Positions 19,475-36,822 of a stretch of 64,000 nt of DNA are shown piece by piece (the stretch's first letter is position 1; every line of letters starts with the position of its first letter). Source of the stretch: Bacillota bacterium (GTDB lineage: Bacteria > Bacillota > Clostridia > Christensenellales > CAG-138); contig JAEYSE010000022.1 in the NCBI GenBank assembly GCA_023435025.1, forward strand, positions 2,690-66,689. Direction: 5' to 3'. A program made the translations under genes and the position numbers. Under the pieces are notes generated by a model. It had not been told where the DNA came from, ran no database searches, and was given only the letters and a program-made list of their open reading frames with translations.

Positions 19475-19503
19475 TTGACAAACGTCAGAACATATGTTAT
19501 ATT
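19475..19503 (+). promoter_or_regulatory. Sigma-70-type promoter candidate for the sugar ABC operon
   Basis: TTGACA (19475-19480), a 17-nt spacer, then TATATT (19498-19503). It lies about 155 nt upstream of the 19659 start in an AT-rich non-coding stretch. It overlaps the TGACAAACGTCA and AGAACATATGTTAT inverted repeats described in the findings. Confidence 0.5.
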
Positions 19504-19658
19504 CAATTCGTACTCATTGACAAACGACAAATCAAATGTCAAAAATCCTTCCGCTTCGCTAAGAACTGCATCAAGGCACGCCCTCCCCTCTCATGAGACG
19601 AATTGAAACGGCTTACTTTTTCGCCGCACAAGCGGCAAATAAATAAGGAGGAGAGATC

Positions 19659-20762
19659 ATGAAAAAGGTACTTTCTTTTGTCGTTGCGTTGTTGATGATC
19701 GCCACGATCTTCACGGGATGTCAGACGACGACTCCGGCACAGCAAACCGCCACGGAAGCGCCCGCCGCTCCCGCGGAACCCGCGGCTCCCGCAGAACCCG
19801 CCGCCACCGAGGCACCCAAGCCGCTTAAAATCGCATTCTTCGTATCGGATCTGAGCAACGTGTTCCACCAGGGTCAGGTTGCCGAAGCGCAGAAGTATGC
19901 AAAGGAAAAATATGGCGCGGAAGTGTATGCGTTTGACGGCCAGTCGGACGGCACCGTCATGACCCAGAACATCGACCAGATACTGGCGCAGGGCATGGAC
20001 ATGGCTACCCTGCACGTCTGGGATGACGAGGCCGCCATCCCCGGCATCAAGGCCGCTCTGGAAGCTGGCGTAACAATGGCTTCCTTCTTCGGTCCCTTCC
20101 CCGGAACCGGCATGCCGGTTGTCCGCAGCGATGAAGCGGGCGTCTCTTTCCAAATGGGTGTCGAAATGGCAATGCAGTGGACAAAAGCTTACCCGGATAA
20201 GCCCATCGTCATGGTGCAGCTGGGCTGGCCCAACCACACCGAAGTAAAATCCGGTCGTACCGATCCGTTCGTAGAGGGCGTGCGTTCTGTAGCGCCCAGC
20301 GCAGTGGACCTTGGCTGCCGTGATGCCTCCGCCGGCCCCGACGCTGCCAAGCAGATCATTGCCGACCTTTGCGTCACCCACCCCGAAGTGAACCTGATCT
20401 ATTCCGAAGCATCCAACCTGACCGTAGGCACCATGGCGGCTCTGCGCGAAGCCGGGCGCGGCAAGTTCCAGGATGGCAAGCCGCTGACCGAAATCGTCTG
20501 CAGCGTGGACTTTGACGCCGTGGAAATGAAGGACGTATACGATCCCAACAGTTCCCTGAAGCTCTCCATGGGCCTGCCGCCGGTGGAAACCGCCCGCGCG
20601 AGAATTGACAACCTCTTTGCTATCCGCAACGGTGAACTCGCCCAGATCGGCGAAACCGAAGTGGAGACCTTCGCAAAGGCGTACAATGTGTCCTACTGGA
20701 CCATGCCGCGCGAGGAAGCCTCAAGGTGGCTCAAAGAACAGTTCGGCGTTGACGTGCAATAA
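19659..20762 (+). CDS. Sugar ABC transporter substrate-binding lipoprotein
   Basis: 367 aa. Signal peptide with lipobox (IFTGC), an Ala/Pro-rich linker, then a periplasmic-binding-protein type I fold pattern (KIAFFVSDLSNVFH...). A strong RBS (AAGGAGGAG) lies upstream. Confidence 0.9.
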   Translation: MKKVLSFVVALLMIATIFTGCQTTTPAQQTATEAPAAPAEPAAPAEPAATEAPKPLKIAFFVSDLSNVFHQGQVAEAQKYAKEKYGAEVYAFDGQSDGTVMTQNIDQILAQGMDMATLHVWDDEAAIPGIKAALEAGVTMASFFGPFPGTGMPVVRSDEAGVSFQMGVEMAMQWTKAYPDKPIVMVQLGWPNHTEVKSGRTDPFVEGVRSVAPSAVDLGCRDASAGPDAAKQIIADLCVTHPEVNLIYSEASNLTVGTMAALREAGRGKFQDGKPLTEIVCSVDFDAVEMKDVYDPNSSLKLSMGLPPVETARARIDNLFAIRNGELAQIGETEVETFAKAYNVSYWTMPREEASRWLKEQFGVDVQ

Positions 20763-20838
20763 CGAAACTACAAGGCACCTAGTAGCGGGGAGGGAGCCTC
20801 TTCCCTTCCCGCTTAAACTTTACTTCGGGGTGAGAACT

Positions 20839-22332
20839 ATGAAAAGCGATACAGTGCTGGAAATTCAAAATCTCGTTAAGGATTATCCCGGCGTTCGCGC
20901 GGTCAACGATGTCACCTTTTCCATCAAGCGAAACACCATACATTGCCTGGTGGGCGAGAACGGCGCGGGAAAATCTACCTTAATTAAAATACTCACCGGT
21001 GCTGTCGCGCGCACCGGCGGCGTTGTGCTGCTAAACGGCAGCGAATACTGTGCCACTAATCCCAAAGAAGCCAAGCAAAAGGGAATCAGCACCCTGTTCC
21101 AGGAACTCAACGTAGTGGATCAGCTGACCGTAGAGGAAAACCTGACGCTGGGCGTGGAAGATACGTCGTTCGGGTTTTTAAAAAAGACCGACAAAATTAA
21201 AAAAATAATCAAAGTGCTTGAAAGCCTGGAGCCTTCCATAGACCCGCACCAGCGCGTTTCCACTTTGAGCGTTGCAAAAAAGCAGATCGTGGAAATTGCC
21301 AAAGCCGTGGCGAGCGAGGCCGATATCATCATTATGGACGAACCTACTGCCGCCATATCGGAGGCCGAGATTAACCGGCTTTTCACAATCATAAGAGGAC
21401 TGCGGGAAAAGAACGTTACCGTTATTTATATATCCCATAGGCTGGATGAGATTTTTGCCCTGGGGGATTATGTCACCGTCATGCGGGATGGCAAACATAT
21501 CGAAACCAAGCCCGTAAGCGAGGTAAAGGACCGAGCGGAACTGATCCGGCTGATGATAGGCAAGACCGTGTTTGAGTCTTATACCCCGCCTGAAACCCGC
21601 GCAGTTGAACCAATATTGGAAATCTCGAATTTGTGCAACCACAAGCTCAAGGATATCACGCTTACGGTGAAGAAAGGCGAGATCGTTGGCTTTTACGGCC
21701 TGGTGGGCGCCGGTAAGACGGAGCTTGCGCGCGCCATATACGGCGCCGACCCGTATTGCGGTGAGATTCGCTTTAAGGGCAAGTCCCTGCAGCTTTCGCC
21801 CAGCAAAGCCATAGAGGCGGGCATCGCGCTGGTGCCGGAGGAACGCCGTTCCCAGGGGTTGTTCACCATATTGACCATTCGCGCCAACGTACCCGTCATG
21901 AACATGAAAAAGATTTCAAAACGCGGCTTTATCGATACCGCAAAGGAAAAGAGGGTTGCGGAGGAATACATGGAGCAGCTCCGCATTGTTTCAAGCGGCA
22001 TCGAAAAAGAAACCGCAAAGCTTTCGGGCGGCAACCAGCAGAAGGTGGTATTCTCCAAATGCCTGTTTGCAGACGCGGATTTGTTGATGTTGGATGAACC
22101 GACCCGCGGCATAGACGTGGGTGCGAAAAGTGAGATATACTCCATCATCCGCCAGCTGTCCCGGGAAGGAAAATCCATACTGATATTCTCCTCCGAACTC
22201 CCGGAAATCATGAACCTCTGTGACAGCATCTACCTGCTCTATGACGGGGAGTTAAAGGCCAGCCTGCAGAACTGCAGCGACATCAATTATGAGGACATCA
22301 TGCATACCGTGACGGGAGGTGAACAGCAGTGA
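20839..22332 (+). CDS. Sugar ABC transporter ATP-binding protein (duplicated ATPase, CUT2 type)
   Basis: Starts MKSDTVLEIQNLVKDYPG. Two nucleotide-binding domains are present: GENGAGKST with IIIMDEPTAA, and GLVGAGKTE with LSGGNQQK and LLMLDEPTRGID. I rejected the tracked 5' extension from 20605 because it overlaps the previous gene. Confidence 0.92.
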   Translation: MKSDTVLEIQNLVKDYPGVRAVNDVTFSIKRNTIHCLVGENGAGKSTLIKILTGAVARTGGVVLLNGSEYCATNPKEAKQKGISTLFQELNVVDQLTVEENLTLGVEDTSFGFLKKTDKIKKIIKVLESLEPSIDPHQRVSTLSVAKKQIVEIAKAVASEADIIIMDEPTAAISEAEINRLFTIIRGLREKNVTVIYISHRLDEIFALGDYVTVMRDGKHIETKPVSEVKDRAELIRLMIGKTVFESYTPPETRAVEPILEISNLCNHKLKDITLTVKKGEIVGFYGLVGAGKTELARAIYGADPYCGEIRFKGKSLQLSPSKAIEAGIALVPEERRSQGLFTILTIRANVPVMNMKKISKRGFIDTAKEKRVAEEYMEQLRIVSSGIEKETAKLSGGNQQKVVFSKCLFADADLLMLDEPTRGIDVGAKSEIYSIIRQLSREGKSILIFSSELPEIMNLCDSIYLLYDGELKASLQNCSDINYEDIMHTVTGGEQQ

Positions 22333-23342
22333 ATAAAAGCAAGACGGGCTTGACCAAAAAAATGAGCAACGACGCCTATATCACGCTGTTCATGGCGTTC
22401 GTGCTCGTGGTGTTGTTTGCCATCGCATGCGCGTTCGTTCCAAACTTCTTTCTCCCGCGCAACATGCTTAACCTCGTCACCAACTACTGGCATGTCATCA
22501 TACTGGGCATAGGCGTCACCTTCCTGCTGATTACCGGAAACTTCGATATGTCGGTCAGCGGCGTTATCGCAATGAGCGGCGTGCTCTCGGTATACTTCTG
22601 CCAGACTGCGGACGCAGCGCTCGCACCTCTTTCCCGCGGGCTGGGTCTCCCCTACGGCATAGCAGTCGTGCTTACCCTTTTATGCGCGCTGCTGATTGGC
22701 GGTATTAACGCGTTCTTTATCGCGAAGCTGAAGGTCGCCTCCATTATCGTCACATTGGGCACCATGTCCGTATCCCGCGGCATCGCACAGATCGCCGCGC
22801 TGGGCGCGCAGCGCAACACCAGCTTGCCCGATGTCTACGGCATAATAGGCAACGGAACGCTGCCGGGCACCCCCATCAAATTACCTGTTCTAATTATGGT
22901 GGTATTGGTGGCCATCGCAGTCGTTATAGAGAAAAAGTACGTATTCGGCCGGCGCACATACCTGATCGGCGCGAACATGGAGGCCGCGCGGCTCTCCGGT
23001 GTTAAGGTCGTAAAACACCTGACGCTTCTCTATCTCGCCAGCGCGTTTCTGGCGGGCGTCACGGGGCTCCTTATGGCGTCCGAATATAAGGCGGGGCTAA
23101 GTAACCGCGCTATCGGCTATGAGTTTGATGCGCTTGTCATCGCCCTGTTAGGCGGCACAAGCATATCAGGCGGGTTCGGTTCGGTACTGGGTACGGTGAT
23201 CGGCGCGCTGATACTTTCAGTGGTCACGTCCGCGGCCACAGGGCTTCTGCTTTCGCCCGACTGGCAGTTCTTTATCAAGGGCGTGGTGACATTCCTGGCC
23301 ATTCTTGCGCAGGGCATTGCCCTAAACAGGAGAAAGGGGTAA
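22329..23342 (+). CDS. Sugar ABC transporter permease
   Basis: 337 aa polytopic protein of RbsC/AraH-like pattern. GTGA start/stop overlap with the ATPase gene. Confidence 0.9.
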   Translation: MNKSKTGLTKKMSNDAYITLFMAFVLVVLFAIACAFVPNFFLPRNMLNLVTNYWHVIILGIGVTFLLITGNFDMSVSGVIAMSGVLSVYFCQTADAALAPLSRGLGLPYGIAVVLTLLCALLIGGINAFFIAKLKVASIIVTLGTMSVSRGIAQIAALGAQRNTSLPDVYGIIGNGTLPGTPIKLPVLIMVVLVAIAVVIEKKYVFGRRTYLIGANMEAARLSGVKVVKHLTLLYLASAFLAGVTGLLMASEYKAGLSNRAIGYEFDALVIALLGGTSISGGFGSVLGTVIGALILSVVTSAATGLLLSPDWQFFIKGVVTFLAILAQGIALNRRKG

Positions 23343-23347
23343 GACTT

Positions 23348-24376
23348 ATGGCAAGAAACCTGAACTGTTCCGCCCCGCGGCGTCAAACGGACTGGAAAGC
23401 GGTATTCAAAAACGTCTACATCTACGTCGTGCTGTTTTGCATCGTTACCATATTCTCGGTAATGAAGCTGGATGAAGTATCCTTCTTCGGCCGCGGCCAC
23501 TTCCTGGGCAAAGACAGCCTCATTCACCTGATGCGCATGTCCGTACCCATCATGACTCTGAGCGGCGGGTTTACGCTGCTGATGATTTCGGGTCACATGG
23601 ATCTTTCCGTGGGAAGCGCGATGAGCTTAAGCTCCGTCGTATTTGCCTGGCTGGTATTAAACGGCGTATCCCTGCCGCTTGCCATGCTGGTCACCGTCGC
23701 CCTGGGCGTAGTGCTCGGCCTGATCAACGGATATCTGGTGATGAAGCTCCGCATTACGCCGGTTATCGCCACGCTGGTCACGCTCAACATATTCAAGGGC
23801 GTGGCACTGCTGATCGTTCCGGACGGTATCTCCGGCATCAAAAGCACGGATACGCAGACAATGCCCGCATTTATCAGCGATTATGCGCGAAAGCCGCTGC
23901 TGTTGGGGCTACCCGCCGCGTTCTATGTAGCGGTGGCGCTCATTCTCATACTGGTTATCGTCCAGCGCAGGACCATACTTGGTAAGTACGCCGCGGCCAT
24001 CGGCGGTAACCGCACTGCGGCGGAGCTTTCAGGCATCAACGCGGTGAAGATCGGGTGGATACTCTACGTTATTGTGGGCGTACTGGCGGCGTTCGCCGGG
24101 TTTGCGCGGGCAAGCTACATGTCTTTGGGCGACCCACTTTCGGGCGACGGTATGGAAACGGACCTGATTATTGCGGTGCTTTTAGGAGGCACAGCGTTCT
24201 CGGGCGGGGAGGGCTCGGTGGCAAAGACAATCGTCGGAGCGCTGATTATCATGTGCATGACGACCGGGCTTATGACGGTAATAGAGCCGTTTTACCAGAT
24301 GTTCTTTAAGGGCGCGGTGTTGATACTTGCGGTCACGCTCAACCATCTCCTGGTGCGGCAAAAGGTCTGCGCCTAG
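23348..24376 (+). CDS. Sugar ABC transporter permease (second subunit)
   Basis: 342 aa polytopic protein, paralogous in pattern to the preceding permease (…GGNRTAAELSGINV…). Confidence 0.9.
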   Translation: MARNLNCSAPRRQTDWKAVFKNVYIYVVLFCIVTIFSVMKLDEVSFFGRGHFLGKDSLIHLMRMSVPIMTLSGGFTLLMISGHMDLSVGSAMSLSSVVFAWLVLNGVSLPLAMLVTVALGVVLGLINGYLVMKLRITPVIATLVTLNIFKGVALLIVPDGISGIKSTDTQTMPAFISDYARKPLLLGLPAAFYVAVALILILVIVQRRTILGKYAAAIGGNRTAAELSGINAVKIGWILYVIVGVLAAFAGFARASYMSLGDPLSGDGMETDLIIAVLLGGTAFSGGEGSVAKTIVGALIIMCMTTGLMTVIEPFYQMFFKGAVLILAVTLNHLLVRQKVCA

Positions 24377-24425
24377 CGCATAGGAAAAGAAATCTCTAAA
24401 GTTCTTGATTGAATGGAGTATTTTT

Positions 24426-25280
24426 GTGGATGCGGTGAATTTATTCGGTCTGTATGAAAAGGCGCTTCCCGCATACTTAAGCTGGGAGGAAAAGCTCTCC
24501 TTCGCAAAATATGCCGGATACGATTTCGTAGAGATGAGCACAGATGAATCGGACGAACGGCTGGAACGCCTGTACCGCAAGGAGGCGCAGGATGAACTGA
24601 TCAGCGCCATACAGAAAACGGGCGTTCCCGTGCTGACCATGTGCTTGAGCGGGAACCGACGCTACCCCATAGGCAGCCGGGAAAAGAATATTCGTGAAAC
24701 TGGCGTGGACCTTATAAAACGCGCCATCAATCTCTCCGTGGCGGTTGGCATACGGGTAATCCAGCTTGCGGGGTATGACGAATATTACAACGAATCGGAC
24801 GAAAGCACGCGCGCTTTCTTTGCCGAATCTCTTCGGGACTGCGTTGACTCCGCCGCGCGCTACGGCGTAATGCTGGCGATTGAAACCATGGATACGGAGC
24901 TGATGGGCTCTATATCCAATATCATGTCCTACATCAAAGAGATCGGGTCCCCCTGGCTGAGCGTGTACCCGGATATCGGCAACCTTTCCTCCCGCAAGGT
25001 GGATATCGAAGCCGATTTTAAGGCCGGCTGCGGGCATATCGCCGCCATACACCTGAAAGACACGCGGGAAAACGAGTTCCGGCGCGTGGGGTTCGGGGAA
25101 GGTATTGTGGATTTTACAGGCTTCTTCCGGCTGATCAAAGCCATTGGTTACAAAGGCCCGTTCGTGGTGGAGATGTGGTCGGACGACAATTTAAACTCCA
25201 TACCCGACGTCAAGCGGGCAAGGGAATTCCTTTTGAGCAAGCAGGCAGAGGCCGCGCTCGCTGAGGCGCAGGAAGCATAA
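24426..25280 (+). CDS. L-ribulose-5-phosphate / L-xylulose-5-phosphate 3-epimerase-like TIM-barrel enzyme (UlaE/SgbU family)
   Basis: LFGLYEKALPAYLSWEEKLSFAKYAGYDFVEMSTDESDERLERL...MCLSGNRRYPIGS closely parallels my recollection of E. coli UlaE/SgbU (PLGIYEKALP...FVEMSVDETDERLSRL...MCLSAHRRFPLGS). I chose the GTG start at 24426, which has GGAG 7 nt upstream. The tracked ORF begins at TTG 24405. Confidence 0.82.
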   Translation: MDAVNLFGLYEKALPAYLSWEEKLSFAKYAGYDFVEMSTDESDERLERLYRKEAQDELISAIQKTGVPVLTMCLSGNRRYPIGSREKNIRETGVDLIKRAINLSVAVGIRVIQLAGYDEYYNESDESTRAFFAESLRDCVDSAARYGVMLAIETMDTELMGSISNIMSYIKEIGSPWLSVYPDIGNLSSRKVDIEADFKAGCGHIAAIHLKDTRENEFRRVGFGEGIVDFTGFFRLIKAIGYKGPFVVEMWSDDNLNSIPDVKRAREFLLSKQAEAALAEAQEA

Positions 25281-25314
25281 TCAAATATTTAGAAAAGAAA
25301 GCGAGGATCTGGGC

Positions 25315-26475
25315 ATGTTGGAATTTGAGAATAACGTACCGGTTCATGTGGTATTTGGGTTAAAGAAACTTGAAACGATCGGCGTGCACGTAAAAGCGCA
25401 CGGCAGAAAGGCGCTCATCGTAACCACAGGCAACTTCTTTGAGAAAAACGGCCTGGTGGGCAGAATTCAGGGCTATCTAAGCGCCGAAGGCATACAGAGC
25501 GAGTATTTCTACGATGTCTCGCCCAACCCCCACCTCCATGAAGCGCTTGCGGGCGCAGAATTCGCCAAGAAGACCGGCTGCGACCTCGTCATCGGCCTGG
25601 GCGGCGGCAGCGCCATAGACGGAGCCAAATGTATCGCCGTGGCCGTAGCGCAAGGCGGCGAAGACATATGGGACTACTGGATGGGCAAAAAGACCATATA
25701 CGCGGCGCTGCCCATTATCGCCGTAACCACCACTTCCGGCACGGGCAGCCACATCTCCCCGTACTCGGTCATCACCAATACGGAAACCGGCGAAAAGCCC
25801 GGCGCGGGTTCTCCGCTGCTTCACGCGAAAGTCGCCATCGTGGACCCGGAGCTGATGATATCGCTGCCTAAGAAAATGACAGCTTCCACAGGCTATGACG
25901 TACTCGCCCACGCGATCGAGGCCTATACCAGTAAATCTGCAACGCCGTTCTCGGACCTCTACTGCGAGAAATCCATCAAGCTGGTGGGCAAATACCTGCG
26001 CCGCGTCGTAAACGATGGCAGCGACGTTGAAGCCCGCGTGATGATGGCGCTGGCGGATACGTTCTCCGGCTACGGCATCAGCATCGCCGTTATCACCATG
26101 TGCCACGCCATGGCGCACGCGGTAGGCGGCGTGTGCAACACCGTGCACGGCGAAAGCCTTGCCGCCATGACCCCCGCGGCCATGCGGCACAGCATGAATA
26201 AGAGCCCGGAAAAGTACAAAAACATCGGCGCGTGGCTAGAAGGCTATGACGTAGTACCCGCGGATTGGACCACCGAAAATACTGTGCAGGCCGTGGAAGC
26301 AGTCATCCGCGATATCGGTATGTACGCTCCGCTTTCCACGCAGGGCGTAAAGCGCGAGGACTTTGACAAGATCATAGAAGGCACTATCGGCTACATGGCT
26401 GGCGGCTGCGAGATTGACCCCGCGGCACCGATTTCCGCCGACGATGTGCGCAAGGTTCTCGAGGCTGCCTTTTAA
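25315..26475 (+). CDS. Iron-containing (group III) alcohol dehydrogenase
   Basis: 386 aa. GLGGGSAIDGAKCIA and the metal-His region (YDVLAHAIEAY, CHAMAHAVGG) are typical of the Fe-ADH family (PduQ/EutG/FucO relatives). No N-terminal extension. Confidence 0.9.
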   Translation: MLEFENNVPVHVVFGLKKLETIGVHVKAHGRKALIVTTGNFFEKNGLVGRIQGYLSAEGIQSEYFYDVSPNPHLHEALAGAEFAKKTGCDLVIGLGGGSAIDGAKCIAVAVAQGGEDIWDYWMGKKTIYAALPIIAVTTTSGTGSHISPYSVITNTETGEKPGAGSPLLHAKVAIVDPELMISLPKKMTASTGYDVLAHAIEAYTSKSATPFSDLYCEKSIKLVGKYLRRVVNDGSDVEARVMMALADTFSGYGISIAVITMCHAMAHAVGGVCNTVHGESLAAMTPAAMRHSMNKSPEKYKNIGAWLEGYDVVPADWTTENTVQAVEAVIRDIGMYAPLSTQGVKREDFDKIIEGTIGYMAGGCEIDPAAPISADDVRKVLEAAF

Positions 26476-26487
26476 GGAGGCGGGCAT

Positions 26488-27003
26488 ATGCGGACGATCG
26501 GATATAAAAAGCTTACGAGGGACGCGTTCGCGCCCTATGGTACGTATGCAAGCATACTCAACCCGGAGGGCTGCCGCTTCGGCGAACCTCCGGTAGAGTT
26601 CTACCGCGATATGGCGCAGCAAACTCTGGGCGCAGGCGTCGGCATGGTATCCTATTCCTGCTGCGTGGTGCGCCAGAGGCCCGATTGGGTGCTGGAAAAC
26701 GCGGAATACCACAACCACACCTGCGAGGCCATACTCTGTCTGGACGGCGATTACCTGATGCATGTCGCCCCCGCCTGCCAGGAGCATGAGGAGCCGTGGG
26801 ACAATATTGAGGTGTTTTTGATTCCCAAGGGTACTTTGGTGGTCACAAGGCCCGGCGTTTGGCATCAGGCAGGATTTCCTTACGGCTGCGGCGAAGTACA
26901 TATACTGTGCGCGCTGCCCGAACGCGCGTACGCCAACGATTGCATCTGCAAAACCATACCGGCTGATAAGCGCATCCAAGTGCTGGATGCGATGATGGAA
27001 TAA
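26488..27003 (+). CDS. Ureidoglycolate-lyase (AllA)-family cupin-like protein, function unknown here
   Basis: 171 aa. The N-terminal LTRDAFAPYGTY and the later GVWHQ resemble the AllA pattern (L..EAF..YG ... VWH). The assignment is by pattern only. Confidence 0.55.
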   Translation: MRTIGYKKLTRDAFAPYGTYASILNPEGCRFGEPPVEFYRDMAQQTLGAGVGMVSYSCCVVRQRPDWVLENAEYHNHTCEAILCLDGDYLMHVAPACQEHEEPWDNIEVFLIPKGTLVVTRPGVWHQAGFPYGCGEVHILCALPERAYANDCICKTIPADKRIQVLDAMME

Positions 27004-27060
27004 AAACGCGCCCGTTCCTCCCGATGGCGTGGCGCGGGCAGGAATCAGAAAGGAGCGGGC

Positions 27061-28569
27061 ATGGGCAAACGGTATGTTCTGGGGCTTGACAATGGCGGGA
27101 CGGTAATAAAAGCCGCGCTGTATGACGAAAACGGCGGCGCTTTAAGCTGCGCGCGCATCGGCGTTGACAGCATATTGGGCGAAAACGGCGAAGTCGAACG
27201 GGATATGGATACGCTCTGGGCGGCGAACTGCGCAGTCCTGCGCGAGACCATAGAAAAATCCAACGTTGATCCCCGTCAAATCGCAGGCGTATCCCTTTCC
27301 GGCCACGGCAACGGGCTGTACCTGGTGGATGAGGACTTACACCCCGTAAGGCTAGGCGTCTATTCCACCGATGCCCGTGCGGCGGCGTTTGTAAAGAAGC
27401 TTCAGCAAACGGGCGCAAGCCGCATCATGTTTGAAAAGACCATGTCGGCAGCCTACCCCGGCCAACCGGGACCGCTTTTAAACCATTTGCTGCAGTATGA
27501 ACCGGAAGCCATCAGAAAAGCAAAATGGGCGCTTGGCTGCAACGATTTTATCCGGCTCCGCCTTACAGGAGAGGCCTTCGGAGAAATTTCCGGTGCGTCG
27601 GCCGCGGGCATATTGAACCAAAAAACCCGCGGGTACGATCCTTTCCTGCTCGAAACGATGGGGATAGCAGGCTGCGGGAGGCTTTTCCCTCCCCTCTCCC
27701 CCTCCTTCGGGCTGTGTGGCGTGGTTTCCCGAAAAGCTTCGCAGGAAACCGGGCTTGCGGAGGGTACCCCTGTCGCTGGCGGCATGATAGACCTTACCGC
27801 CTGCGCCATCGCCATGGGCATGACGGATAAAAAAAGGCTCGCGCTGATTGCGGGCACATGGAGTATCAACGAGTATCTCGCGAATATCCCCCCCGTCGCG
27901 CCGGAGCTGCTGCTTTCATCGGTATATTGCATAGACGGCTACTACCTGGTGACGGATGGCAGCACGGCTTCTGCGGGCAACCTCGAATGGTTCGTGCAGG
28001 GCTTTTTGTCCTCCGAACGGGCGCAGATGCAGGCGGAGGGAAAGACAGTATATGACGCCGCAAATCATATGGTCGCTTCCATAATACATGAGGAGAGCAG
28101 CATACTCTTCCTGCCATTTTTATATGGTTCCAACGTGGACGCGGACGTCAAGGCCTGTTTCCTTGGCATCACCGGCAGGCACACAAAGGCCCATATGCTC
28201 CGCGCCATATACGAGGGCGTTGTATTCTCCCACAAAACGCATGTGGAACGGCTTTTAAAATACCGCGATCGGCCGGAAGCCGTACGCATCGCGGGAGGGG
28301 CCGCAAGATCCCGCGTATGGGTACAGATGTTTGCGGATGCGTTGGGTCTGCCGGTTGAGGTATCGGCGGGAGAGGAATTGGGCACCATGGGCGCTGCGAT
28401 GTGCGCGGGCGTGGCGACGGGGGTGTTCCCCTCGTTCCTTGAGGCAGCGAACCGATTCTCCAATGTCGCTTATATTGTGGAGCCCGACCTGAAAAGCAAA
28501 GAACGATACGCGCAGAAATACATGCTGTATCATAAGGCAATCGAACGGCTTTCGCAATTATGGATGTAA
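27061..28569 (+). CDS. FGGY-family carbohydrate kinase (xylulokinase / L-xylulose kinase-like)
   Basis: 502 aa. VLGLDNGGTVIKAALYD (the N-terminal ATPase motif), a GTWS-type block (IAGTWSINEY) and a C-terminal GGAARSRVWVQMFADALG block are typical of FGGY kinases. Confidence 0.9.
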   Translation: MGKRYVLGLDNGGTVIKAALYDENGGALSCARIGVDSILGENGEVERDMDTLWAANCAVLRETIEKSNVDPRQIAGVSLSGHGNGLYLVDEDLHPVRLGVYSTDARAAAFVKKLQQTGASRIMFEKTMSAAYPGQPGPLLNHLLQYEPEAIRKAKWALGCNDFIRLRLTGEAFGEISGASAAGILNQKTRGYDPFLLETMGIAGCGRLFPPLSPSFGLCGVVSRKASQETGLAEGTPVAGGMIDLTACAIAMGMTDKKRLALIAGTWSINEYLANIPPVAPELLLSSVYCIDGYYLVTDGSTASAGNLEWFVQGFLSSERAQMQAEGKTVYDAANHMVASIIHEESSILFLPFLYGSNVDADVKACFLGITGRHTKAHMLRAIYEGVVFSHKTHVERLLKYRDRPEAVRIAGGAARSRVWVQMFADALGLPVEVSAGEELGTMGAAMCAGVATGVFPSFLEAANRFSNVAYIVEPDLKSKERYAQKYMLYHKAIERLSQLWM

Positions 28570-28578
28570 ATGCAAAAT

Positions 28579-28610
28579 GTCCGCCACTCTTTGATGAATG
28601 GCGGGCGTTT
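28579..28610 (+). terminator. Terminator candidate after the kinase gene
   Basis: GTCCGCCA-N12-TGGCGGGC, an 8-bp stem that includes one G:U pair, followed by GTTTCCTTCTCC. The T-tract is weak. Confidence 0.4.
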
Positions 28611-28660
28611 CCTTCTCCTTATACTTTTCAATGCGTTTTGACTTTTGTTATGAAATATTC

Positions 28661-28690
28661 TTGACATACAAATCCCGGCAGGGCTAAGAT
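28661..28690 (+). promoter_or_regulatory. Promoter candidate for the first SorC regulator
   Basis: TTGACA (28661-28666), an 18-nt spacer, then TAAGAT (28685-28690). It lies about 40 nt upstream of the 28732 start. Confidence 0.4.
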
Positions 28691-28731
28691 GAAAGATGCA
28701 TGGGATTTCCAATAACTTTTGAGGTGGCTCG

Positions 28732-29688
28732 ATGGATACAAGGCATGACATACACATACTGGTGCAGGCCGCACAGATGTATTATATGGATGGACTGACA
28801 CAGGAAAAGATCGCGCAGCAGCTGGGTATATCGCGCTCGGCTGTTTCTATGATACTCACCGAAGCGCGGGAGTTCGGAATTGTCGATATTAAAATCAAGA
28901 ACCCGCAGATCAACAACGACGAACTCTCACAGAAAATGATAGAGCGGTTTCAACTAAAAAAATGCTTCGTCATACCTGTTAACGCCAAGCTTCAGCGGAT
29001 ATTGACAAGAATCGTGGCTACCCAGGGCGCGGCAATTGCAGAAAAAGAGATCCGCAGCCACTCCTCTCTGGGAGTCGCGTGGGGTACCACCTGTTATGAG
29101 TTCATGTCCGCCTTTCGCAACACGGAGAATTTGTTCGACGTGCATGTACTGCCGTTGATTGGCGGCACCAACCGCATCGCTTCGGAATACCAGCTCAATG
29201 AAATGGTGCGCATCATGGCCGAAAAGCTGCAGGGGCTCCCCTCTTTTATGTACGCCCCTGCGCTTGCCGAAACCATAGAAGAAAGGGACCTGCATATGAA
29301 AAGCGCATACATGCAGCCCCTGATTGAAAAATGGAATACGCTGGACGTTGCGCTCATCAGCGTGGGCGCACCGCCGGATTATTATAGCAGCAAGCCGCAG
29401 TTCGAGCCGGAGGTTGCCAAACAGCGTTTTGAATCCGATCCTACGCTGGCCGTGGGGGACTTTTGCGCGCGCCGCTTCAACATACACGGCGAGTTCCTGA
29501 ACAACCAGTATAACCGCCGTATCATAGGAATAAGCGAGCAGGAGCTTCGCAACGCGGGCAATGTCATCTGCATGGCGGCTGGGGACCATAAGGTATTGTC
29601 CATATTGGGCGCGCTGCGCGCTGACGTGATCGACATCCTCATCACGGATGAAAATACCGCCGAGCGCGTGATGCGCATCGCGGACTGA
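28732..29688 (+). CDS. SorC/DeoR-type sugar-binding transcriptional regulator (paralog 1)
   Basis: 318 aa. N-terminal HTH (AAQMYYMDGLTQEKIAQQLGISRSAVSMILTEAREFGIV), then a sugar-phosphate-binding domain with GVAWGTT and PLIGG motifs as in B. subtilis DeoR/CggR and SorC. Confidence 0.85.
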   Translation: MDTRHDIHILVQAAQMYYMDGLTQEKIAQQLGISRSAVSMILTEAREFGIVDIKIKNPQINNDELSQKMIERFQLKKCFVIPVNAKLQRILTRIVATQGAAIAEKEIRSHSSLGVAWGTTCYEFMSAFRNTENLFDVHVLPLIGGTNRIASEYQLNEMVRIMAEKLQGLPSFMYAPALAETIEERDLHMKSAYMQPLIEKWNTLDVALISVGAPPDYYSSKPQFEPEVAKQRFESDPTLAVGDFCARRFNIHGEFLNNQYNRRIIGISEQELRNAGNVICMAAGDHKVLSILGALRADVIDILITDENTAERVMRIAD

Positions 29689-29705
29689 TTTCTGTTTTCG
29701 CATAC

Positions 29706-29727
29706 GCCCGGCGGACCGGGCTTTTTT
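29706..29727 (+). terminator. Rho-independent terminator after SorC paralog 1
   Basis: GCCCGG-CGGA-CCGGGC followed by TTTTTT. Confidence 0.7.
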
Positions 29728-29739
29728 ACCGCCGTTGAG

Positions 29740-29755
29740 ATGAACGGTTGTTCAT
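29740..29755. promoter_or_regulatory. Palindromic operator candidate aTGAACggttGTTCAt upstream of SorC paralog 2
   Basis: Perfect 6+6 inverted repeat. The same TGAAC-N4-GTTCA architecture recurs at 30972-30985, and a degenerate copy lies at 19487-19500. Confidence 0.35.
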
Positions 29756-29813
29756 TGCATCCAGGGAATGTGAAAGTAAGTGACGGACAGTATCGGTAAG
29801 TGGAAGGTGCAAA

Positions 29814-30755
29814 ATGGACGAGAGAAGGGACACAAAAATCCTGGTGGCTAAGCTCTACTACACGCAAGGGCTTTCGCAAGAGGAGATCGCAAAGCAGATT
29901 CACCTGTCCCGGCCCACCGTATCGCGGTTGTTAAAAGCCTGTATCGAGGAAGGCATCGTGCAAATCAAAATTGACGATATCTCTTCCCTGGGGCAGGAAC
30001 TTGCAAAGCGCCTTGCGGATACCTACGGCATAAAAAAAGCGATCGTGGTGCCGTCCAGCTCCAGCGCGGAGGCGGATAAGGAACGTGTCGGCCGTGCGGC
30101 GGCAGGATACCTGCAGGAAATACTGCTTCCCAAAATGCTCATAGGTATCTCCTGGGGCTCCACCATACATGCCGTGGTACAGCACCTCGATCCCCCCAGC
30201 TTTATGAAGGCCGACGTCATTCAGCTTCTGGGCGGCACAGGCAGCAAGACAGGCGATACGGATGCAAACTCCATGGCGCTCTCCCTCGCGCGCGCCCTCA
30301 ACGGTGACGCGTATCTTCTGCAAGCGCCATTTATGGTGCAAAGCAAAATACTGCGGGACCTTTTAATGGAAGAACCGCATATCAAGACGCATTTTGAAAA
30401 GCTCAAGCACACGGATATCGCAATCGTCGGGCTGGGCTCCACGAAACCGGCGCTTTCTGCGCAGTTCCGTTCCGGCCATATCAATATGGCGGATTCCGAG
30501 CGGCTGATCGCAGAAGGCGCGGTCGGGGATATCTGCGGAAGGTATGTGGACATCAATGGCCTAAGTTGCCATACGCTATTGAGCGACAAAATGATCGCGG
30601 TAACACTGGACGCGCTCAAACGCATCCCTACGGTTATAGGCGTAGCAGCTGGCGAACAGAAGGCGGATATCATCGTGGGCGCTTTGCGCGGCAGGTATAT
30701 AGACGTGCTGGTTACCGATGAAAAGGCGGCTGTCGGCGTGCTCGGGTACAGATGA
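29814..30755 (+). CDS. SorC/DeoR-type sugar-binding transcriptional regulator (paralog 2)
   Basis: 313 aa. HTH (VAKLYYTQGLSQEEIAKQIHLSRPTVSRLLKACIEEGIV), then GISWGST and QLLGG motifs. Confidence 0.85.
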   Translation: MDERRDTKILVAKLYYTQGLSQEEIAKQIHLSRPTVSRLLKACIEEGIVQIKIDDISSLGQELAKRLADTYGIKKAIVVPSSSSAEADKERVGRAAAGYLQEILLPKMLIGISWGSTIHAVVQHLDPPSFMKADVIQLLGGTGSKTGDTDANSMALSLARALNGDAYLLQAPFMVQSKILRDLLMEEPHIKTHFEKLKHTDIAIVGLGSTKPALSAQFRSGHINMADSERLIAEGAVGDICGRYVDINGLSCHTLLSDKMIAVTLDALKRIPTVIGVAAGEQKADIIVGALRGRYIDVLVTDEKAAVGVLGYR

Positions 30756-30915
30756 GCAAGCGCTTAACGTCCAAAGTATCGGCGTTAAAAATCGCTCCGT
30801 CTTCGCCAAAGACCTCGGACACTACCCTTTCCTAAGAGCGCCCGCAGCGAAGGTGCAGCAGAACACCCCTAGGTAGCAATGCTTAAACAAAACACATAAT
30901 GTCCTTTTAACACAC

Positions 30916-30943
30916 GCGGCTCCATGCGAGCCGCCTTTTTATT
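30916..30943 (+). terminator. Rho-independent terminator after SorC paralog 2
   Basis: GCGGCTC-CATGC-GAGCCGC followed by CTTTTTATT. Confidence 0.75.
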
Positions 30944-31001: not shown

Positions 31002-31030
31002 TTGACATGGGTGTATGGACGCAGTATTAT
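31002..31030 (+). promoter_or_regulatory. Sigma-70-type promoter candidate for the BMC operon
   Basis: TTGACA (31002-31007), a 17-nt spacer, then TATTAT (31025-31030). It is followed immediately by the inverted repeat TGACAAATGTCA (31036-31047) and lies about 50 nt upstream of the rpe start. Confidence 0.55.
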
Positions 31031-31079
31031 AAATTTGACAAATGTCATGAACAATGTTAAAGGTCAACAGGAGCACATC

Positions 31080-31742
31080 ATGAAGCTATCTGCGTCCATA
31101 TTGTCGGCGGACCATCTGCGTCTTGGCGCGGAAATAGAGCGGGCGGTTTCCGCCGGGTGCGAGTACCTCCACCTGGACGTCATGGACGGCCACTTCGTTC
31201 CCAATCTTGCCGTAGGTGTTTGCACCGTGGAAGCGCTCAGAGGAGAAACCCGTCTTCGCAAGGACGCGCACCTGATGGTATCCAATCCCGAAGTCCTGAT
31301 CGAGCCCTTCATCAGCGCGGGTGCAGACTCCATCACCATACACGCAGAAAGCACCCCCCACCCTATCCGCCTGCTGCGGGAAATCAAAAGAGCGGGAAAG
31401 CTCGCGGGCCTGGCTCTTACCCCCGAGACCCCGGTGGAAGCGGTGCACACCGCCCTGTTTGAAGCGGATATCGTGCTGCAAATTTCGGTCTGCGTGGGCT
31501 TTGGCGGGCAGAAGTTCATCGTCCCGGTATATGAAAAACTACGGCAACTCCGCGAATACAAGGCGCGTTACGGCCTTAACTTTGAGATACAGGTGGACGG
31601 GGGCATCAACGCCGAAACCGCAGGCATTGCCGCTGAATGCGGCGCCGAAGTCCTGGTGGCCGGCTCCGCGCTGTTCTGCGCGGCGGATATGAGGTCTGCT
31701 GCGAACGCTTTACGTAACCCAACGCCAAACGGCGTATATTGA
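31080..31742 (+). CDS. rpe: Ribulose-phosphate 3-epimerase
   Basis: MKLSASILSADHLRLGAEIERAVSAGCEYLHLDVMDGHFVPNL... is a canonical Rpe N-terminus (S.L.AD, H.DVMDG.FVPN), with VDGGI later. RBS AACAGGAG lies upstream. I rejected the tracked TTG extension from 31002 because it overlaps the promoter. Confidence 0.9.
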   Translation: MKLSASILSADHLRLGAEIERAVSAGCEYLHLDVMDGHFVPNLAVGVCTVEALRGETRLRKDAHLMVSNPEVLIEPFISAGADSITIHAESTPHPIRLLREIKRAGKLAGLALTPETPVEAVHTALFEADIVLQISVCVGFGGQKFIVPVYEKLRQLREYKARYGLNFEIQVDGGINAETAGIAAECGAEVLVAGSALFCAADMRSAANALRNPTPNGVY

Positions 31743-31766
31743 GTAACGGAAATTGGAGGGAATGGT

Positions 31767-32555
31767 ATGGGTCTATATTCCGACAACCTGAAGGATAAGG
31801 TCTGTGTGGTAACGGGCGCGGCAAAAAGCATCGGCTTTGCCATTGCGCAAAAGTATGCCGAGCAGGGCGCAAAAGTGGTGCTTCTGGACATCGATCCGTT
31901 GGTGGAGCGTTCCGCCGAAGAACTGCGGGAAAAGGGGTTCCAGGCGTTCGGCGCCGTGCTCAACATCACGGACAGGGAGGCTGTGTTAAAGACCTTCGAG
32001 CGTATCGTGGAGGAGCACGGCGAGATCTATGCGCTGATCAATAACGCGGGCGCAGTAGACCAGAGGCCCTTTGAAGAAAACGACGAGGCCGTGTTCGAAA
32101 AGATGTTTAAAATCAACGTCTATGGCACCGCCTGGTGCATTCAGGGCGCAATCGAAAGCATGAAGCGGCAGAAGGATGGCCGCATCATCAACTTCTCCTC
32201 CAAATCCGGCAAGACGGGTTCGGCACTGATGGGCCCGTACAGCGCGGCAAAAGGAGCGATCATTTCACTGACTCAGGCGCTCGCGTACGAGTACGCGCCC
32301 TACAACATCAAAATCAACTGTGTTTGCCCCGGCATTACGGACGCCACGGGCGTATGGTCCAGCGTGAGCGCCGGGTATATCGACAACCTGCATCTTCCCC
32401 GGGAAGAGGTCATCAAGAAATTCACGGCAAAGGTGCCTTTGGGAAGGCTTACGGATAAGCAGGATCTGGTGGACTTTGTGTTCTTCCTCACGGTATCCGG
32501 GGATTACTGCACCGGGCAGGCGTTCAACATCACCGGCGGCCGAGAGATGCACTAA
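31767..32555 (+). CDS. Short-chain dehydrogenase/reductase, sorbitol-6-phosphate dehydrogenase (SrlD)-like
   Basis: 262 aa. Shows TGAAKSIG (Rossmann) and YSAAK (catalytic Y-x3-K). [12 protein letters not shown]...[16 protein letters not shown] resembles my recollection of E. coli SrlD (INSKSGKVGS...YCTGQSINVTGGQVMF). Confidence 0.85.
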
Positions 32556-32566
32556 AGGAGGCGCGT

Positions 32567-33406
32567 ATGGATATTGAAAAACTCGTCCGGGAAATCACCG
32601 CGGAGGTTCTAAAAGAAGTGGGCGGTACGGCGGGCACATCCGCGCTGCAGCCCAGAGAATCCAAAAGGGACATGAGCTACGGCAAATACATGGATCATAC
32701 CGTACTCAAGCCCGAAACCATAAGATCTTCCGTGAAGCGCTTCTGCGACGAAGCGAAGGAATGGGGCTTCGCCAGCGTATGCGTCAACCCCACGCACGTG
32801 AAATTCGTGTCCAATGAGCTCAAGGGCACAAGCGTGAAAACCTGCTGCGTCATCGGCTTCCCTCTGGGCGCGAACACGCCCTTTGTCAAGGCCGTGGAGG
32901 CAATGGAAGCCGTCAAGAACGGCGCCAACGAAGTGGACATGGTCATCAACGTTGGCGCGCTCAAGGATAAGGATTACGACCTGGTACTCGCGGATATCAA
33001 GGGCGTGGTGGACGCCGCGCATCCCACAGCAGAGGTCAAGGTCATCATCGAAACCTGCCTGCTGACGGACGAGGAAAAGGTTCGCGCGTGCGAGCTTGCC
33101 AAGCAGGCCGGTGCGGATTTTGTAAAGACGTCCACGGGCTTCGGCTCTGGTGGGGCGACTGTGGAAGACATCCGGCTCATGAAGCGCACCGTGGGGGACA
33201 GCATGCGTGTGAAGGCCTCCACCGGCATCAACGACAGGGCCATCTGCGACGCCATGATCGCTGCAGGCGCCGTGCGCATGGGCACCAGCAAGGGCATTAA
33301 GATCATAATGGGCGAGGAAGAGCAGAAGCAGTGCACGAACTGCGGCAACTGCAAAGCCTCCTGCCCAAGCGGTAACGTGACCATCCAGAAAAAGAGCGAC
33401 TATTAA
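32567..33406 (+). CDS. deoC: Deoxyribose-phosphate aldolase family enzyme with an encapsulation-peptide-like N-terminus and a C-terminal CX2CX2CX3CP tail
   Basis: 279 aa. The DeoC core has [21 protein letters not shown] (Schiff-base Lys context) and VKASTGI. About 35 extra N-terminal residues begin [18 protein letters not shown] (amphipathic helix). About 35 extra C-terminal residues contain [12 protein letters not shown]. Confidence 0.9.
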
Positions 33407-33431
33407 AGAATCAGTAAGGAGAATGTGAAAT

Positions 33432-33707
33432 ATGGATAAGCAGGCATTGGGCATGGTGGAAACAAGGGGTCTGGTCGGCGCGATTGAAGCGGCGGACGCC
33501 ATGGTAAAAGCGGCCAACGTAACGTTGGTTGGCAAAGAACAGATCGGCTCGGGCCTTGTCACCGTTATGGTGCGCGGCGACGTCGGCGCAGTCAAGGCCA
33601 GCGTGGACGCAGGCGCGGCGGCGGCCAAGCGCGTGGGTGAACTCGTAAGCGTGCATGTCATACCCCGGCCCCATCAGGATGTGGAGAACATACTCCCCGC
33701 GAAATGA
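33432..33707 (+). CDS. BMC-H shell protein (PduA/EutM-type hexamer, Pfam BMC domain)
   Basis: 91 aa. [77 protein letters not shown] is a textbook PF00936 sequence. Confidence 0.95.
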
Positions 33708-33732
33708 CCGCGAAGACTTTTAGGAGGGCAAT

Positions 33733-34497: not shown

Positions 34498-34549
34498 CGA
34501 GGCAATCAAGGTATCTTATTAAAAATCTGAGTTTCAGGAGTACAGGGTT

Positions 34550-36492: not shown

Positions 36493-36502
36493 GGAACACC
36501 TT

Positions 36503-36805
36503 ATGCAGATCGCACGGGTTCGGGGAAGCGTGGTAAGTACAAATAAAACCGAGAAGCTGCATGGGCTAAAACTGCTTGTGGTGGTACCCATTGAGTTGAA
36601 CTCGTTTGAGGAGAAGGGCTCCCCCATCGTCGCCATCGATACCGTTGGCGCGGGGCCGGGAGAGGTCGTAATGCTCTGCGGCGGAAGTTCCTCGCGGCAG
36701 ACGCCGCTTACCGAAAACAAGCCCTCCGATATGGCAATCGTGGCGATCATCGATTCGATAGAGATGAACGGCAATACCATTTTCAGAAAGTATGGCGGCG
36801 ACTGA
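36503..36805 (+). CDS. BMC-P vertex (pentamer) protein, EutN/CcmL family (paralog 1)
   Basis: 100 aa. MQIARVRGSVVSTNKTEKLHGLKLLVV...AIDTVGAGPGEVVMLCGGSSSR...AIVAIIDSIE is a typical PF03319 pattern. Confidence 0.9.
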   Translation: MQIARVRGSVVSTNKTEKLHGLKLLVVVPIELNSFEEKGSPIVAIDTVGAGPGEVVMLCGGSSSRQTPLTENKPSDMAIVAIIDSIEMNGNTIFRKYGGD

Positions 36806-36822
36806 GCGGGAATGAGGAAAAT

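Follow-up and report, generated by a model that had tools for sequence, protein, structure and literature searches.

A sugar importer operon syntenic with an SPU4 microcompartment operon in Christensenellales, and its candidate substrates

SPU microcompartments (Axen 2014, PMC4207490; Sutter 2021, PMC8217296; Dwyer 2024, PMC11585597) are among the most widespread metabolosomes, and both the feedstock of their deoxyribose-phosphate aldolase (DERA) and the reason for their pentose-phosphate isomerases are in question, the current view being that they consume "deoxyribose-5-P from DNA debris". The locus described here raises this question in a specific form. In a 64,000-nucleotide stretch of DNA from a Bacillota bacterium of the order Christensenellales (hereafter the window; contig JAEYSE010000022.1, positions 2,690 to 66,689), an operon for an SPU-type bacterial microcompartment (BMC) follows an operon that encodes a CUT2-type ATP-binding cassette (ABC) importer, an FGGY sugar kinase and a 3-epimerase. 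What does the importer take up, and how would that compound be connected to the organelle? Our best guess, from gene content, is that the substrate is a pentitol or ketopentose. We tentatively read the whole as one co-regulated island in which such a compound would be imported, processed by a cytosolic kinase and epimerases, and linked to an SPU4 organelle, and give this reading somewhat less than an even chance.

Layout and coupling of the two operons

The + strand between 19.5 and 40.2 kb of the window forms a single compact catabolic island of two operons and two SorC-family regulators. The flanks consist of housekeeping genes with no relation to it: upstream those for an M20 peptidase, MreBCD and a penicillin-binding protein, and downstream those for an alpha/beta hydrolase, for a TetR regulator and for a LysM/GH18 protein. 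The open reading frames (ORFs) between 18 and 44 kb, and some flanking ORFs, were scanned with Pfam and NCBIfam models, using the curated cut-offs to decide family membership. These checks located on the + strand all of the genes that an earlier sequence-only reading of this DNA had named, including the eight-gene operon upstream of the BMC operon, with every gene family listed for it, and the two SorC regulators that follow. The eight genes make up the first transcription unit (19659–28569), and the second runs from the ATG of ribulose-phosphate 3-epimerase (Rpe) at 31077 to 40197, an arrangement that fits the promoter-like sites and terminator-like hairpins.

Gene layouts were mapped with tblastn in 80 loci retrieved by alignment of the first DERA of the window (DeoC1), and a search with the solute-binding protein (SBP) of the importer served as a second entry point. 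At least 13 related loci share the layout, with protein identities of 46–85% (L001, L002, L006–L009, L025, L085, L087, L088, L155, L165 and L166, where L numbers denote fetched loci), and in these the importer module co-occurs with BMC genes. The conserved set comprises the importer, a UlaE-type 3-epimerase, a cupin, the FGGY kinase, both SorC regulators, Rpe, two short-chain dehydrogenases/reductases (SDR1 and SDR2), DeoC1 and the shell. In L006, L007, L008, L009, L025, L001 and L002, which derive from Christensenellaceae or near relatives (46–83% identity), the order by tblastn was permease/(AraD-like)/UlaE/cupin/FGGY/SorC/SorC/Rpe/SDR1/SDR2/shell/DeoC1/PduL and, further along, the second DERA (DeoC2). 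Precomputed Pfam labels gave the same order for L165, a 3.67-Mb contig. The SBP search returned L085, L155, L087 and L088, which read importer/UlaE/iron-type alcohol dehydrogenase (Fe-ADH)/cupin/FGGY/SorC/(Rpe/AraD-like). The AraD-like gene lies among the shell genes in the window and between the permease and UlaE in L006, L007 and L165, and this shuttling between the operons argues for a single pathway.

The two operons also have a regulatory motif in common. The promoter region of the importer operon (19475–19546, + strand) contains a promoter-like site at 19475–19503 with 11 of 12 matches, as does that of the organelle operon (31002–31047, + strand; site at 31002–31030, again 11 of 12). In the former, the operator-like palindrome TTGACAAAYGTCA stands at 19475 and 19517, with GAACATATGTTA at 19488; in the latter, a copy of the palindrome, TTGACAAATGTCA, is found at 31035, immediately past the −10 box, with GAACATATGTTC at 30973. 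A second palindrome, GAACATATGTT, lies near the first in both promoter regions. Allowing at most one mismatch, the first palindrome has four matches in the window versus 0.14 expected, and three of the four fall within the two promoters. (The remaining copy, at 9514–9526 on the − strand with one mismatch, lies inside a 1250-aa ORF and is probably a chance match.) The motif is kept upstream of the SBP gene in L085, L155, L087 and L088 and upstream of Rpe in L087, L001, L002 and L025. When the exact 12-mer was looked up in 175 fetched loci it was present in seven, six of which are of the same type as the window (type A, below), and it stood upstream of SBP (L085, L088, L155), Rpe (L002, L087) or the first SorC gene (L025).

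From this motif the importer and organelle operons appear to be co-regulated through a common operator-like palindrome, which bears on whether both would answer the same inducer. Because conserved synteny and the common motif are two independent lines of evidence, the functional coupling of the operons looks real, in agreement with what had been proposed from the window alone. The alternative is that they are independent neighbors, a pentitol or L-xylulose operon that feeds the pentose-phosphate pathway beside an SPU4 organelle fed by nucleoside-derived deoxyribose-5-phosphate. On paper, each half is a complete known module with no biochemical bridge to the other, the transcription units are separate and have their own promoters and terminators, and many SPU loci are without the importer/kinase/epimerase module. 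Independence is, however, hard to reconcile with synteny kept over wide divergence, with the mobility of the AraD-like gene and the common motif, with the embedding of Rpe, the SDRs and the AraD-like gene among shell genes, or with a locus (L039) in which SDR1 and the importer adjoin DERA even without a shell, and we regard it as quite improbable.

The regulator genes lie between the operons. SorC1 (28732–29688, +) has its own promoter-like site at 28661–28690 and a terminator-like hairpin at 29706–29721, and SorC2 (29814–30755, +) is followed by a terminator-like hairpin at 30916–30934. One or both would bind TTGACAAAYGTCA in both promoters, a pairing that we infer. The best NCBIfam match of both is the Bacillus-type DeoR, at 195 bits for SorC1 and 239 bits for SorC2, each below cut-off, and SorC2 is about 33% identical to regulators adjoining deoC in Bacillus loci. 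These scores favor a different substrate, namely a deoxy sugar, which could be 2-deoxy-D-ribose set free from DNA or else a deoxy pentose or polyol akin to it. With its help from the cupin, the FGGY kinase would then make 2-deoxyribose-5-phosphate more or less directly, the SorC regulators would sense it as DeoR does in Bacillus, and the epimerases and SDRs would handle side substrates or stereoisomers. We consider this less likely than the C5 reading but a serious rival to it, and take up the evidence on it with the genes concerned.

The SPU4 organelle operon

Judged by its genes, the organelle is an SPU metabolosome of the already known subtype SPU4. This subtype has been described as having a phosphotransacylase (PTAC), a triplet of BMC-P proteins, similar BMC-H paralogs, no consistent BMC-T and a protein labeled "eut_hyp" (PMC8217296 supplement), and was cataloged from Firmicutes hosts including Catabacter/Christensenella and "Clostridiales R-7" (PMC8217296). 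The window encodes BMC-H proteins, similar to each other, with a BMC-P triplet, an extended DERA signature enzyme that retains the catalytic D/K/K residues, an extended acylating aldehyde dehydrogenase (AldDH) of the PduP type, and a PduL-type PTAC (PF06130). It also encodes, at the "eut_hyp" position, a family-less protein with an N-terminus resembling an encapsulation peptide (EP).

DeoC1 (32567–33406, +; TIGR00126 278 bits, cut-off 117) is 58–64% identical to the housekeeping DeoC of Bacillus, Listeria and Staphylococcus, relative to which it carries an encapsulation-type N-terminal extension of about 35 residues; the catalytic D/K/K is kept. Its best genome matches, at 77–82% identity, are in Christensenellaceae and metagenome-assembled genomes of Christensenellales. 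In a difference from described SPU4 loci, DeoC1 ends in a ferredoxin-like CxxCxxCxxxCP tail (33332–33367) that is nearly invariant in full-length homologs and might give the aldolase a site for redox chemistry or metal binding. The tail is absent in L006, L007 and L165, whose loci, unlike the window, have PduS and a BMC-T of 181 aa. DeoC2 (39460–40197, +; TIGR00126 198 bits, cut-off 117) is divergent. It has an N-terminal extension similar to that of DeoC1 and keeps D/K/K, but its substrate loops are altered, reading YIKISNAL (FVKTSTGF elsewhere) and KIDGGIND (KASGGVRT elsewhere). Its orthologs terminate other SPU4 loci and form a conserved clade of their own, and the protein may act on another substrate or serve as a scaffold. 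That both DERAs are true DeoC by the curated model, and that DeoC1 is so close to housekeeping enzymes, are points in favor of an imported deoxy sugar, which would also be in line with the published SPU hypothesis (PMC11585597, PMC8217296).

Downstream of DeoC1 the remaining core enzymes are interleaved with shell genes on the + strand. The PduL-type PTAC (35196–35855; NF011652 229 bits, cut-off 209) and the PduP/EutE-type acylating AldDH (36823–38241; NF011927 631 bits, cut-off 403) both bear N-terminal extensions, as do the two DERAs. The conserved SPU4 protein with the EP-like N-terminus (35845–36492) has no Pfam or NCBIfam match, and homologs of it with 28–38% identity hold the same position in other SPU4 loci. 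The shell set consists of three BMC-H (PF00936) and three BMC-P (PF03319) proteins: BMC-H at 33432–33707, BMC-P at 36503–36805, and a run at 38285–39442 that encodes BMC-H (38285–38602), BMC-P (38605–38868), BMC-H (38890–39162) and BMC-P (39173–39442). Past DeoC2, the + strand ORFs at 40161–40439 and 40506–41060 have no family match, and the second overlaps the 408-aa alpha/beta-hydrolase gene on the − strand (40260–41486). They are probably not genes, which would put the end of the operon at 40197.

Four proteins of the organelle operon lack a terminal extension by their Pfam coordinates, namely Rpe, SDR1, SDR2 and a class II aldolase-fold protein, and they are for this reason taken to be probably cytosolic. 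The presence of Rpe and of the class II protein in the BMC operon had been noted before. Rpe (31077–31742, +, starting at the ATG) passes the cut-off of TIGR01163 (236 bits, cut-off 213), scores 214 bits with Pfam, and also scores on the model for allulose-6-phosphate 3-epimerase. SDR1 (31767–32555, +), which had been read as an SrlD-like sugar-phosphate enzyme, turned out to be nearer to free sorbitol and xylitol dehydrogenases, its best matches in the Protein Data Bank (PDB; 1k2w, 4e6p, 1zem), than to sorbitol-6-phosphate dehydrogenase. It is the gene most tightly tied to DeoC1 across contexts (type A loci, L039, L011, L016, L019 and L121). SDR2 (33733–34497, +) resembles glucose-1-dehydrogenase/FabG proteins and is closest to the glucose 1-dehydrogenase of Bacillus.

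The class II protein (34550–35206, +; PF00596) scores 166 bits on NF005123, below the cut-off of 251, while the FucA and DrdA models score similarly and the AraD insertion is absent. Alignments made with HMMER of a relative to 1k0w and 6btd, read together with the window translation, place an Asp (in "ESVDT") at the position of AraD D76, which is occupied by Glu in the aldolases FucA and DrdA. On this signature the protein is probably an L-ribulose-5-phosphate 4-epimerase-like enzyme, referred to here as AraD-like. We rejected it as an encapsulated, aldehyde-forming aldolase, given the epimerase-type Asp, the missing extension and its position next to UlaE in relatives. An encapsulated aldolase step, as suggested by the sequence-only reading, is therefore retained for the two extended DERAs and dropped for the class II protein. 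The PVM and GRM5 fucose/rhamnose microcompartments offer a parallel: their metabolosomes process aldehydes that derive from sugars, and the loci also encode a protein of the class II aldolase fold besides sugar kinases or isomerases. There, however, the class II aldolase is itself the aldehyde-forming signature enzyme, with lactaldehyde as the intermediate, whereas in the window the class II protein is epimerase-like and the aldehyde source is DERA.

Among the scanned ORFs there was no match to a dehydratase, an RpiB-type isomerase (PF02502), triose-phosphate isomerase (TPI; PF00121), PduS, DeoB or a nucleoside phosphorylase. Ribose-5-phosphate isomerase (RPI) is absent from 11 of 29 curated SPU4 loci anyway, and in other SPU types RpiB complexes with DERA "without an obvious role" (PMC11585597). 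The gap between the AldDH and the next BMC-H gene (38241–38285) is only 43 bp. Relatives have PduS (Complex1_51K/SLBB/Fer4) and a tandem-domain BMC-T in this place (13954–15881 in L165, 4039–5897 in L029), and the organelle of the window is therefore without the usual electron-transfer pair. Compared to SPU4 as described, then, the window is without RpiB, TPI and PduS/BMC-T, intersperses its shell genes with those for Rpe, two SDRs and an AraD-like protein, and ties its organelle operon to an importer/kinase/3-epimerase operon via the common operator-like motif. The word "transporter" does not occur in the main text of Dwyer 2024 (PMC11585597), and a term search of the Sutter 2021 supplement (PMC8217296) gave no sugar kinase, ABC transporter or epimerase. 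In a literature search, no paper was found that connects an importer, kinase or epimerase module with SPU organelles, and none on an SPU-type microcompartment in Christensenella, C. minuta being cataloged with a GRM5-like locus. The organelle type is known; the link to an importer, kinase and epimerase, and the occurrence of Rpe, AraD-like protein and SDRs in place of RpiB and TPI, are absent from the SPU papers and supplements searched.

The importer operon and a possible route to the organelle

The importer is encoded by the first four genes of the upstream operon. The SBP (19659–20762, +) is a CUT2 lipoprotein (Peripla_BP_4) with a signal peptide and the lipobox ...IFTGC. It matches no NCBIfam equivalog, a PDB sequence search gave only distant, RbsB-like ribose-binding proteins (E about 1e-9), and Foldseek with its AlphaFold2 (AF2) model returned only generic RbsB-like folds with at most 20% identity, from which the ligand is not inferable. 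That the nearest folds are ribose-binding proteins adds to the case for a deoxy sugar. The ATPase (20839–22332, +, starting at the ATG at 20839 and not the TTG at 20605) has two ABC_tran domains and is most like AraG/XylG/GguA by NCBIfam, below cut-offs, and is followed by two BPD_transp_2 permeases (22329–23342 and 23348–24376, +).

Next comes the 3-epimerase for L-xylulose-5-phosphate (L-Xu5P) and L-ribulose-5-phosphate (L-Ru5P) of the UlaE/SgbU type (24405–25280, +, with a start at TTG 24405 or GTG 24435). It passes the cut-offs of both NF009688 (346 bits, cut-off 317) and TIGR00542 (335 bits, cut-off 272), and aligns over its full length with E. coli UlaE (3cqh) at 278 bits, keeping the motifs LAxExMD, YPDIGN, HxKD and EMWS, in which we take the UlaE metal ligands to reside. 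We are confident on these grounds that it is a member of the family, as had been read from its sequence, and the peptide strings quoted in that reading were found. The Fe-ADH (25315–26475, +; Pfam, NCBIfam) has no targeting extension. It is present in L085, L155, L087 and L088 and absent in L006, L007, L025 and L165, and homologs with 47–53% identity accompany the same importer in shell-less contexts. By this distribution it is a variable member of the module that follows the importer and not the shell; a role like that of PduQ or EutG, suggested earlier, is possible and not specifically supported.

The 171-residue cupin (26488–27003, +; PF04115) combines an AllA fold with DUF4867-like features. 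Its AF2 model (pLDDT 91) matched the AllA-type protein 2bdr in Foldseek (TM 0.79, 16% identity) and then the DUF4867 protein SqvB (9gyy), and its invariant residues (E73, H75, E80, H126) are reminiscent of the 2His-2Glu iron site in DUF4867. DUF4867 proteins accompany or are fused to FGGY kinases and are suspected, without proof, of ketose ring opening or mutarotation (PMC11968277); a distant homolog of the cupin adjoins an FGGY kinase in L167. By analogy, the cupin is probably a metal cupin that assists a ketose kinase. The AllA likeness pointed out in the sequence-only reading thus holds for the fold and not for the function: ureidoglycolate lyase was rejected, since the fold alone matches, NF009932 gives 30 bits versus a cut-off of 160, and the context is one of sugar genes and not of purine or allantoin genes.

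The FGGY kinase (27061–28569, +; Pfam) has orthologs with 46–56% identity in syntenic loci and falls below every curated NCBIfam cut-off, the best scores being 201 bits for XylB (cut-off 380) and 158 for LsrK (cut-off 528). Its best PDB match is LsrK (5ya0, 132 bits). Together with an ABC importer, a SorC regulator, an Rpe homolog and a DeoC/LacD-family enzyme, this gives the island a superficial family likeness to lsrACDB-K-R-F-E, the genes for uptake and degradation of autoinducer-2. We rejected such a function on model scores, as the SBP has no LsrB match, LsrG is absent, the LsrK, LsrR, LsrA and LsrC/D models give scores far under their cut-offs and lower than those of other families, and both PF01791 proteins are true DERAs and not LsrF; what credence it retains is negligible.

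If the imported compound is a pentitol or ketopentose, the genes suggest the following steps, whose order, like the substrate class, we infer. The importer would take up a small, neutral C5 polyol or ketose of the xylitol, L-arabinitol or L-xylulose type, which SDR1 and/or the Fe-ADH would oxidize in the cytosol, and the FGGY kinase, aided by the cupin, would phosphorylate the ketose. The UlaE-type 3-epimerase, the AraD-like 4-epimerase and Rpe would then interconvert L-Xu5P, L-Ru5P, D-xylulose-5-phosphate (D-Xu5P) and D-ribulose-5-phosphate (D-Ru5P), also in the cytosol. Inside the organelle, the two DERAs would split 2-deoxyribose-5-phosphate to give glyceraldehyde-3-phosphate along with acetaldehyde, from which the AldDH would form acetyl-CoA, and PduL then acetyl-phosphate. 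A C5 ketose-5-phosphate is suggested because UlaE, Rpe and the AraD-like protein with its Asp signature converge on these compounds; a free polyol is indicated because SDR1 is nearest to sorbitol and xylitol dehydrogenases, and a ketose because of the cupin and kinase.

The cytosolic part resembles the lower pathway for L-xylulose and L-ascorbate in E. coli (LyxK-SgbH-SgbU-SgbE and UlaD-UlaE-UlaF), with which the sequence-only reading had compared it. The logic of L-Xu5P to L-Ru5P to D-Xu5P is the same, UlaE and Rpe pass their cut-offs, and the AraD/UlaF-fold protein is a plausible counterpart with its epimerase-type Asp at D76. The kinase is likewise an FGGY protein, though by score not a LyxK orthologue. 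The window further differs in having no UlaD/SgbH decarboxylase (one is present beside orthologous importers elsewhere), in its SorC-type regulators, in uptake by a CUT2 ABC system and not by a phosphotransferase (PTS) or TRAP system, and in the interleaving of its genes with those of a microcompartment.

Several observations weigh against a pentitol or ketopentose. Foremost, no recognizable enzyme of the island makes 2-deoxyribose-5-phosphate from pentulose phosphates, which leaves a gap in the chain at the decisive point; the connection of DeoC to the module had already been called not obvious, and it is no more so now. Other SPU types pose a similar puzzle with the RpiB that complexes with DERA. 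An alternative DERA substrate is unlikely, going by the identity of about 60% between DeoC1 and ordinary DERAs. The SBP has no characterized relative, and the kinase is below all curated cut-offs. In the SPU4 island of Christensenella (Catabacter) hongkongensis, an ABC importer, an FGGY kinase, a dehydrogenase and TPI surround DERA with no epimerase, a layout that by analogy would better suit direct phosphorylation of an imported deoxy sugar. Finally, orthologous importers adjoin a UlaD-like decarboxylase, a hint of a C6 compound.

The missing step could be filled if the SPU4 organelle of these Christensenellales were not, or not only, a scavenger of DNA but the terminus of a pathway for a pentitol or ketopentose taken up by the cell, and if the island encoded an unrecognized non-radical route from pentulose phosphate to 2-deoxyribose-5-phosphate. 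An enediolate-forming "epimerase" would remove water, SDR1 and SDR2 would carry out two ketoreductions, and the Fe-ADH would oxidize the terminal alcohol; with DERA and AldDH, the sum would be a redox-neutral, phosphoketolase-like split into glyceraldehyde-3-phosphate and acetyl-phosphate. The scheme is chemically coherent. It needs a 1-kinase, however, whereas the best matches of the FGGY kinase are 5-kinases, and we consider it a long shot. Were it true, the same logic could account for the RpiB–DERA complex in other SPU types. The island itself offers testable handles in a dedicated importer, a kinase with its helper cupin, two regulators and a common operator-like site. As Christensenellaceae are a gut-relevant lineage, the gut ecology of SPU organelles would need rethinking if the inducer were a dietary polyol or pentulose.

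Substrates suggested by related loci

The C. hongkongensis island (L029) has the order SorC/medium-chain dehydrogenase (MDR)/DeoC1/FGGY/TPI/ABC importer and is best read as serving deoxy-sugar import with direct phosphorylation. It resembles the window in its SPU4 shell and core and in having a SorC regulator, a dehydrogenase, an FGGY kinase and a CUT2 importer, and because of its layout the deoxy-sugar explanation stays alive for the window. The importer and kinase are, however, not orthologous to those of the window (there is no SBP match, and the kinases are 23% identical), and the island has TPI and PduS/BMC-T but no UlaE, cupin, Rpe, SDR1, SDR2 or AraD-like protein. In the same strain (HKU16), a large serine recombinase and a MobA/VirD2-type relaxase lie directly after the SPU4 island (17270–20514 of L029), which hints that the island is beside or on a mobile element.

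Other loci in which DERA has a kinase or an importer next to it also speak for a deoxy sugar. An FGGY kinase adjoins DERA in L005, L022, L029 and L031, and the high-GC contig L039 carries SDR1, an MDR dehydrogenase, a DeoC without extension and an orthologous ABC importer but shows no shell genes. A DeoC that is close to DeoC1 but does not belong to a BMC forms a pair with a kinase of the ROK family. Such pairs are seen at 9044–10690 of L174 and 2094–3740 of L175, where the extension-less DeoC is 76% identical to DeoC1, and may be a two-gene deoxyribose module with another kinase family. To our knowledge, no FGGY kinase is known to act on an aldose such as deoxyribose. A deoxy sugar would, moreover, leave the conserved UlaE, AraD-like protein, Rpe and SDR1 without a role, and importers orthologous to that of the window (60–75% identical) are found beside UlaD/UlaE/UlaF-like sets where DERA is absent.

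The SBP family, with 58–85% identity, extends across many metagenomes and phyla, and its neighborhoods fall into several types. Type A is that of the window. Type B begins with a protein of the orotidine monophosphate (OMP) decarboxylase family (192 bits as UlaD-like, 151 bits as hexulose-phosphate synthase (HPS)-like), followed by BMC-H/CsoS1D-type BMC-T/BMC-P/BMC-H/PanB-like hydroxymethyltransferase/SDR/importer and then by UlaE-like/AraD-like (passing NF005123)/FGGY/HAD/SorC, with no AldDH; in L169 it is preceded by the E1 and E2 subunits of a 2-oxoacid dehydrogenase. Type B' has the type B enzymes without shell or PanB. In type C (L121, L124), SDR1/BMC-H/DeoC/Rpe are near SDR/cupin/importer/FGGY/SorC, and in type D the importer occurs with Fe-ADH, SDRs, an aldehyde:ferredoxin oxidoreductase, a protein resembling glyceraldehyde-3-phosphate dehydrogenase (GAPDH) and phosphoglycerate kinase (PGK). 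The importer thus recurs beside a LyxK/UlaD/UlaE/UlaF-like set, beside DERA and beside shell-gene clusters of two different kinds, and because of this recurrence we suggest that its substrate would generally be broken down via a reactive intermediate.

The type B and B' neighborhoods raise the last alternative, a six-carbon substrate (a hexitol or ketohexose, or else an L-gulonate-type acid, aldonic or 3-keto), with the epimerases acting on hexulose-6-phosphates or, after loss of C1, on L-xylulose-5-phosphate. Orthologous importers are mostly flanked by a UlaD/HPS-like decarboxylase, an SDR, UlaE-like and AraD-like proteins and an FGGY kinase, sometimes also by an aldo-keto reductase (AKR) and an SGL lactonase; the resemblance of SDR1 to sorbitol and galactitol dehydrogenases, and the score of Rpe on the allulose-6-phosphate model, point the same way. 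The decarboxylase is nevertheless absent from the window, UlaE and Rpe pass C5-specific equivalog cut-offs, the kinase and AraD-like protein of the window are just 27–33% identical to their counterparts in the decarboxylase-type loci, and on a C6 route, too, DERA is left without a substrate. A six-carbon compound therefore has only a slight chance of being the substrate, and a C5 polyol or ketose remains our preferred candidate.

The type B shell cluster is found at 4907–21911 of L081 and 1468–21074 of L169, and also in L084, L101, L104, L117, L119, L150 and L170, while L120, L125, L126, L132 and L137 have the type B enzymes but no shell. It was not turned up by a term search of the Sutter 2021 supplement (PMC8217296). 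The decarboxylase of this cluster carries an extension, and one possibility is that the cluster encodes a formaldehyde-handling organelle.

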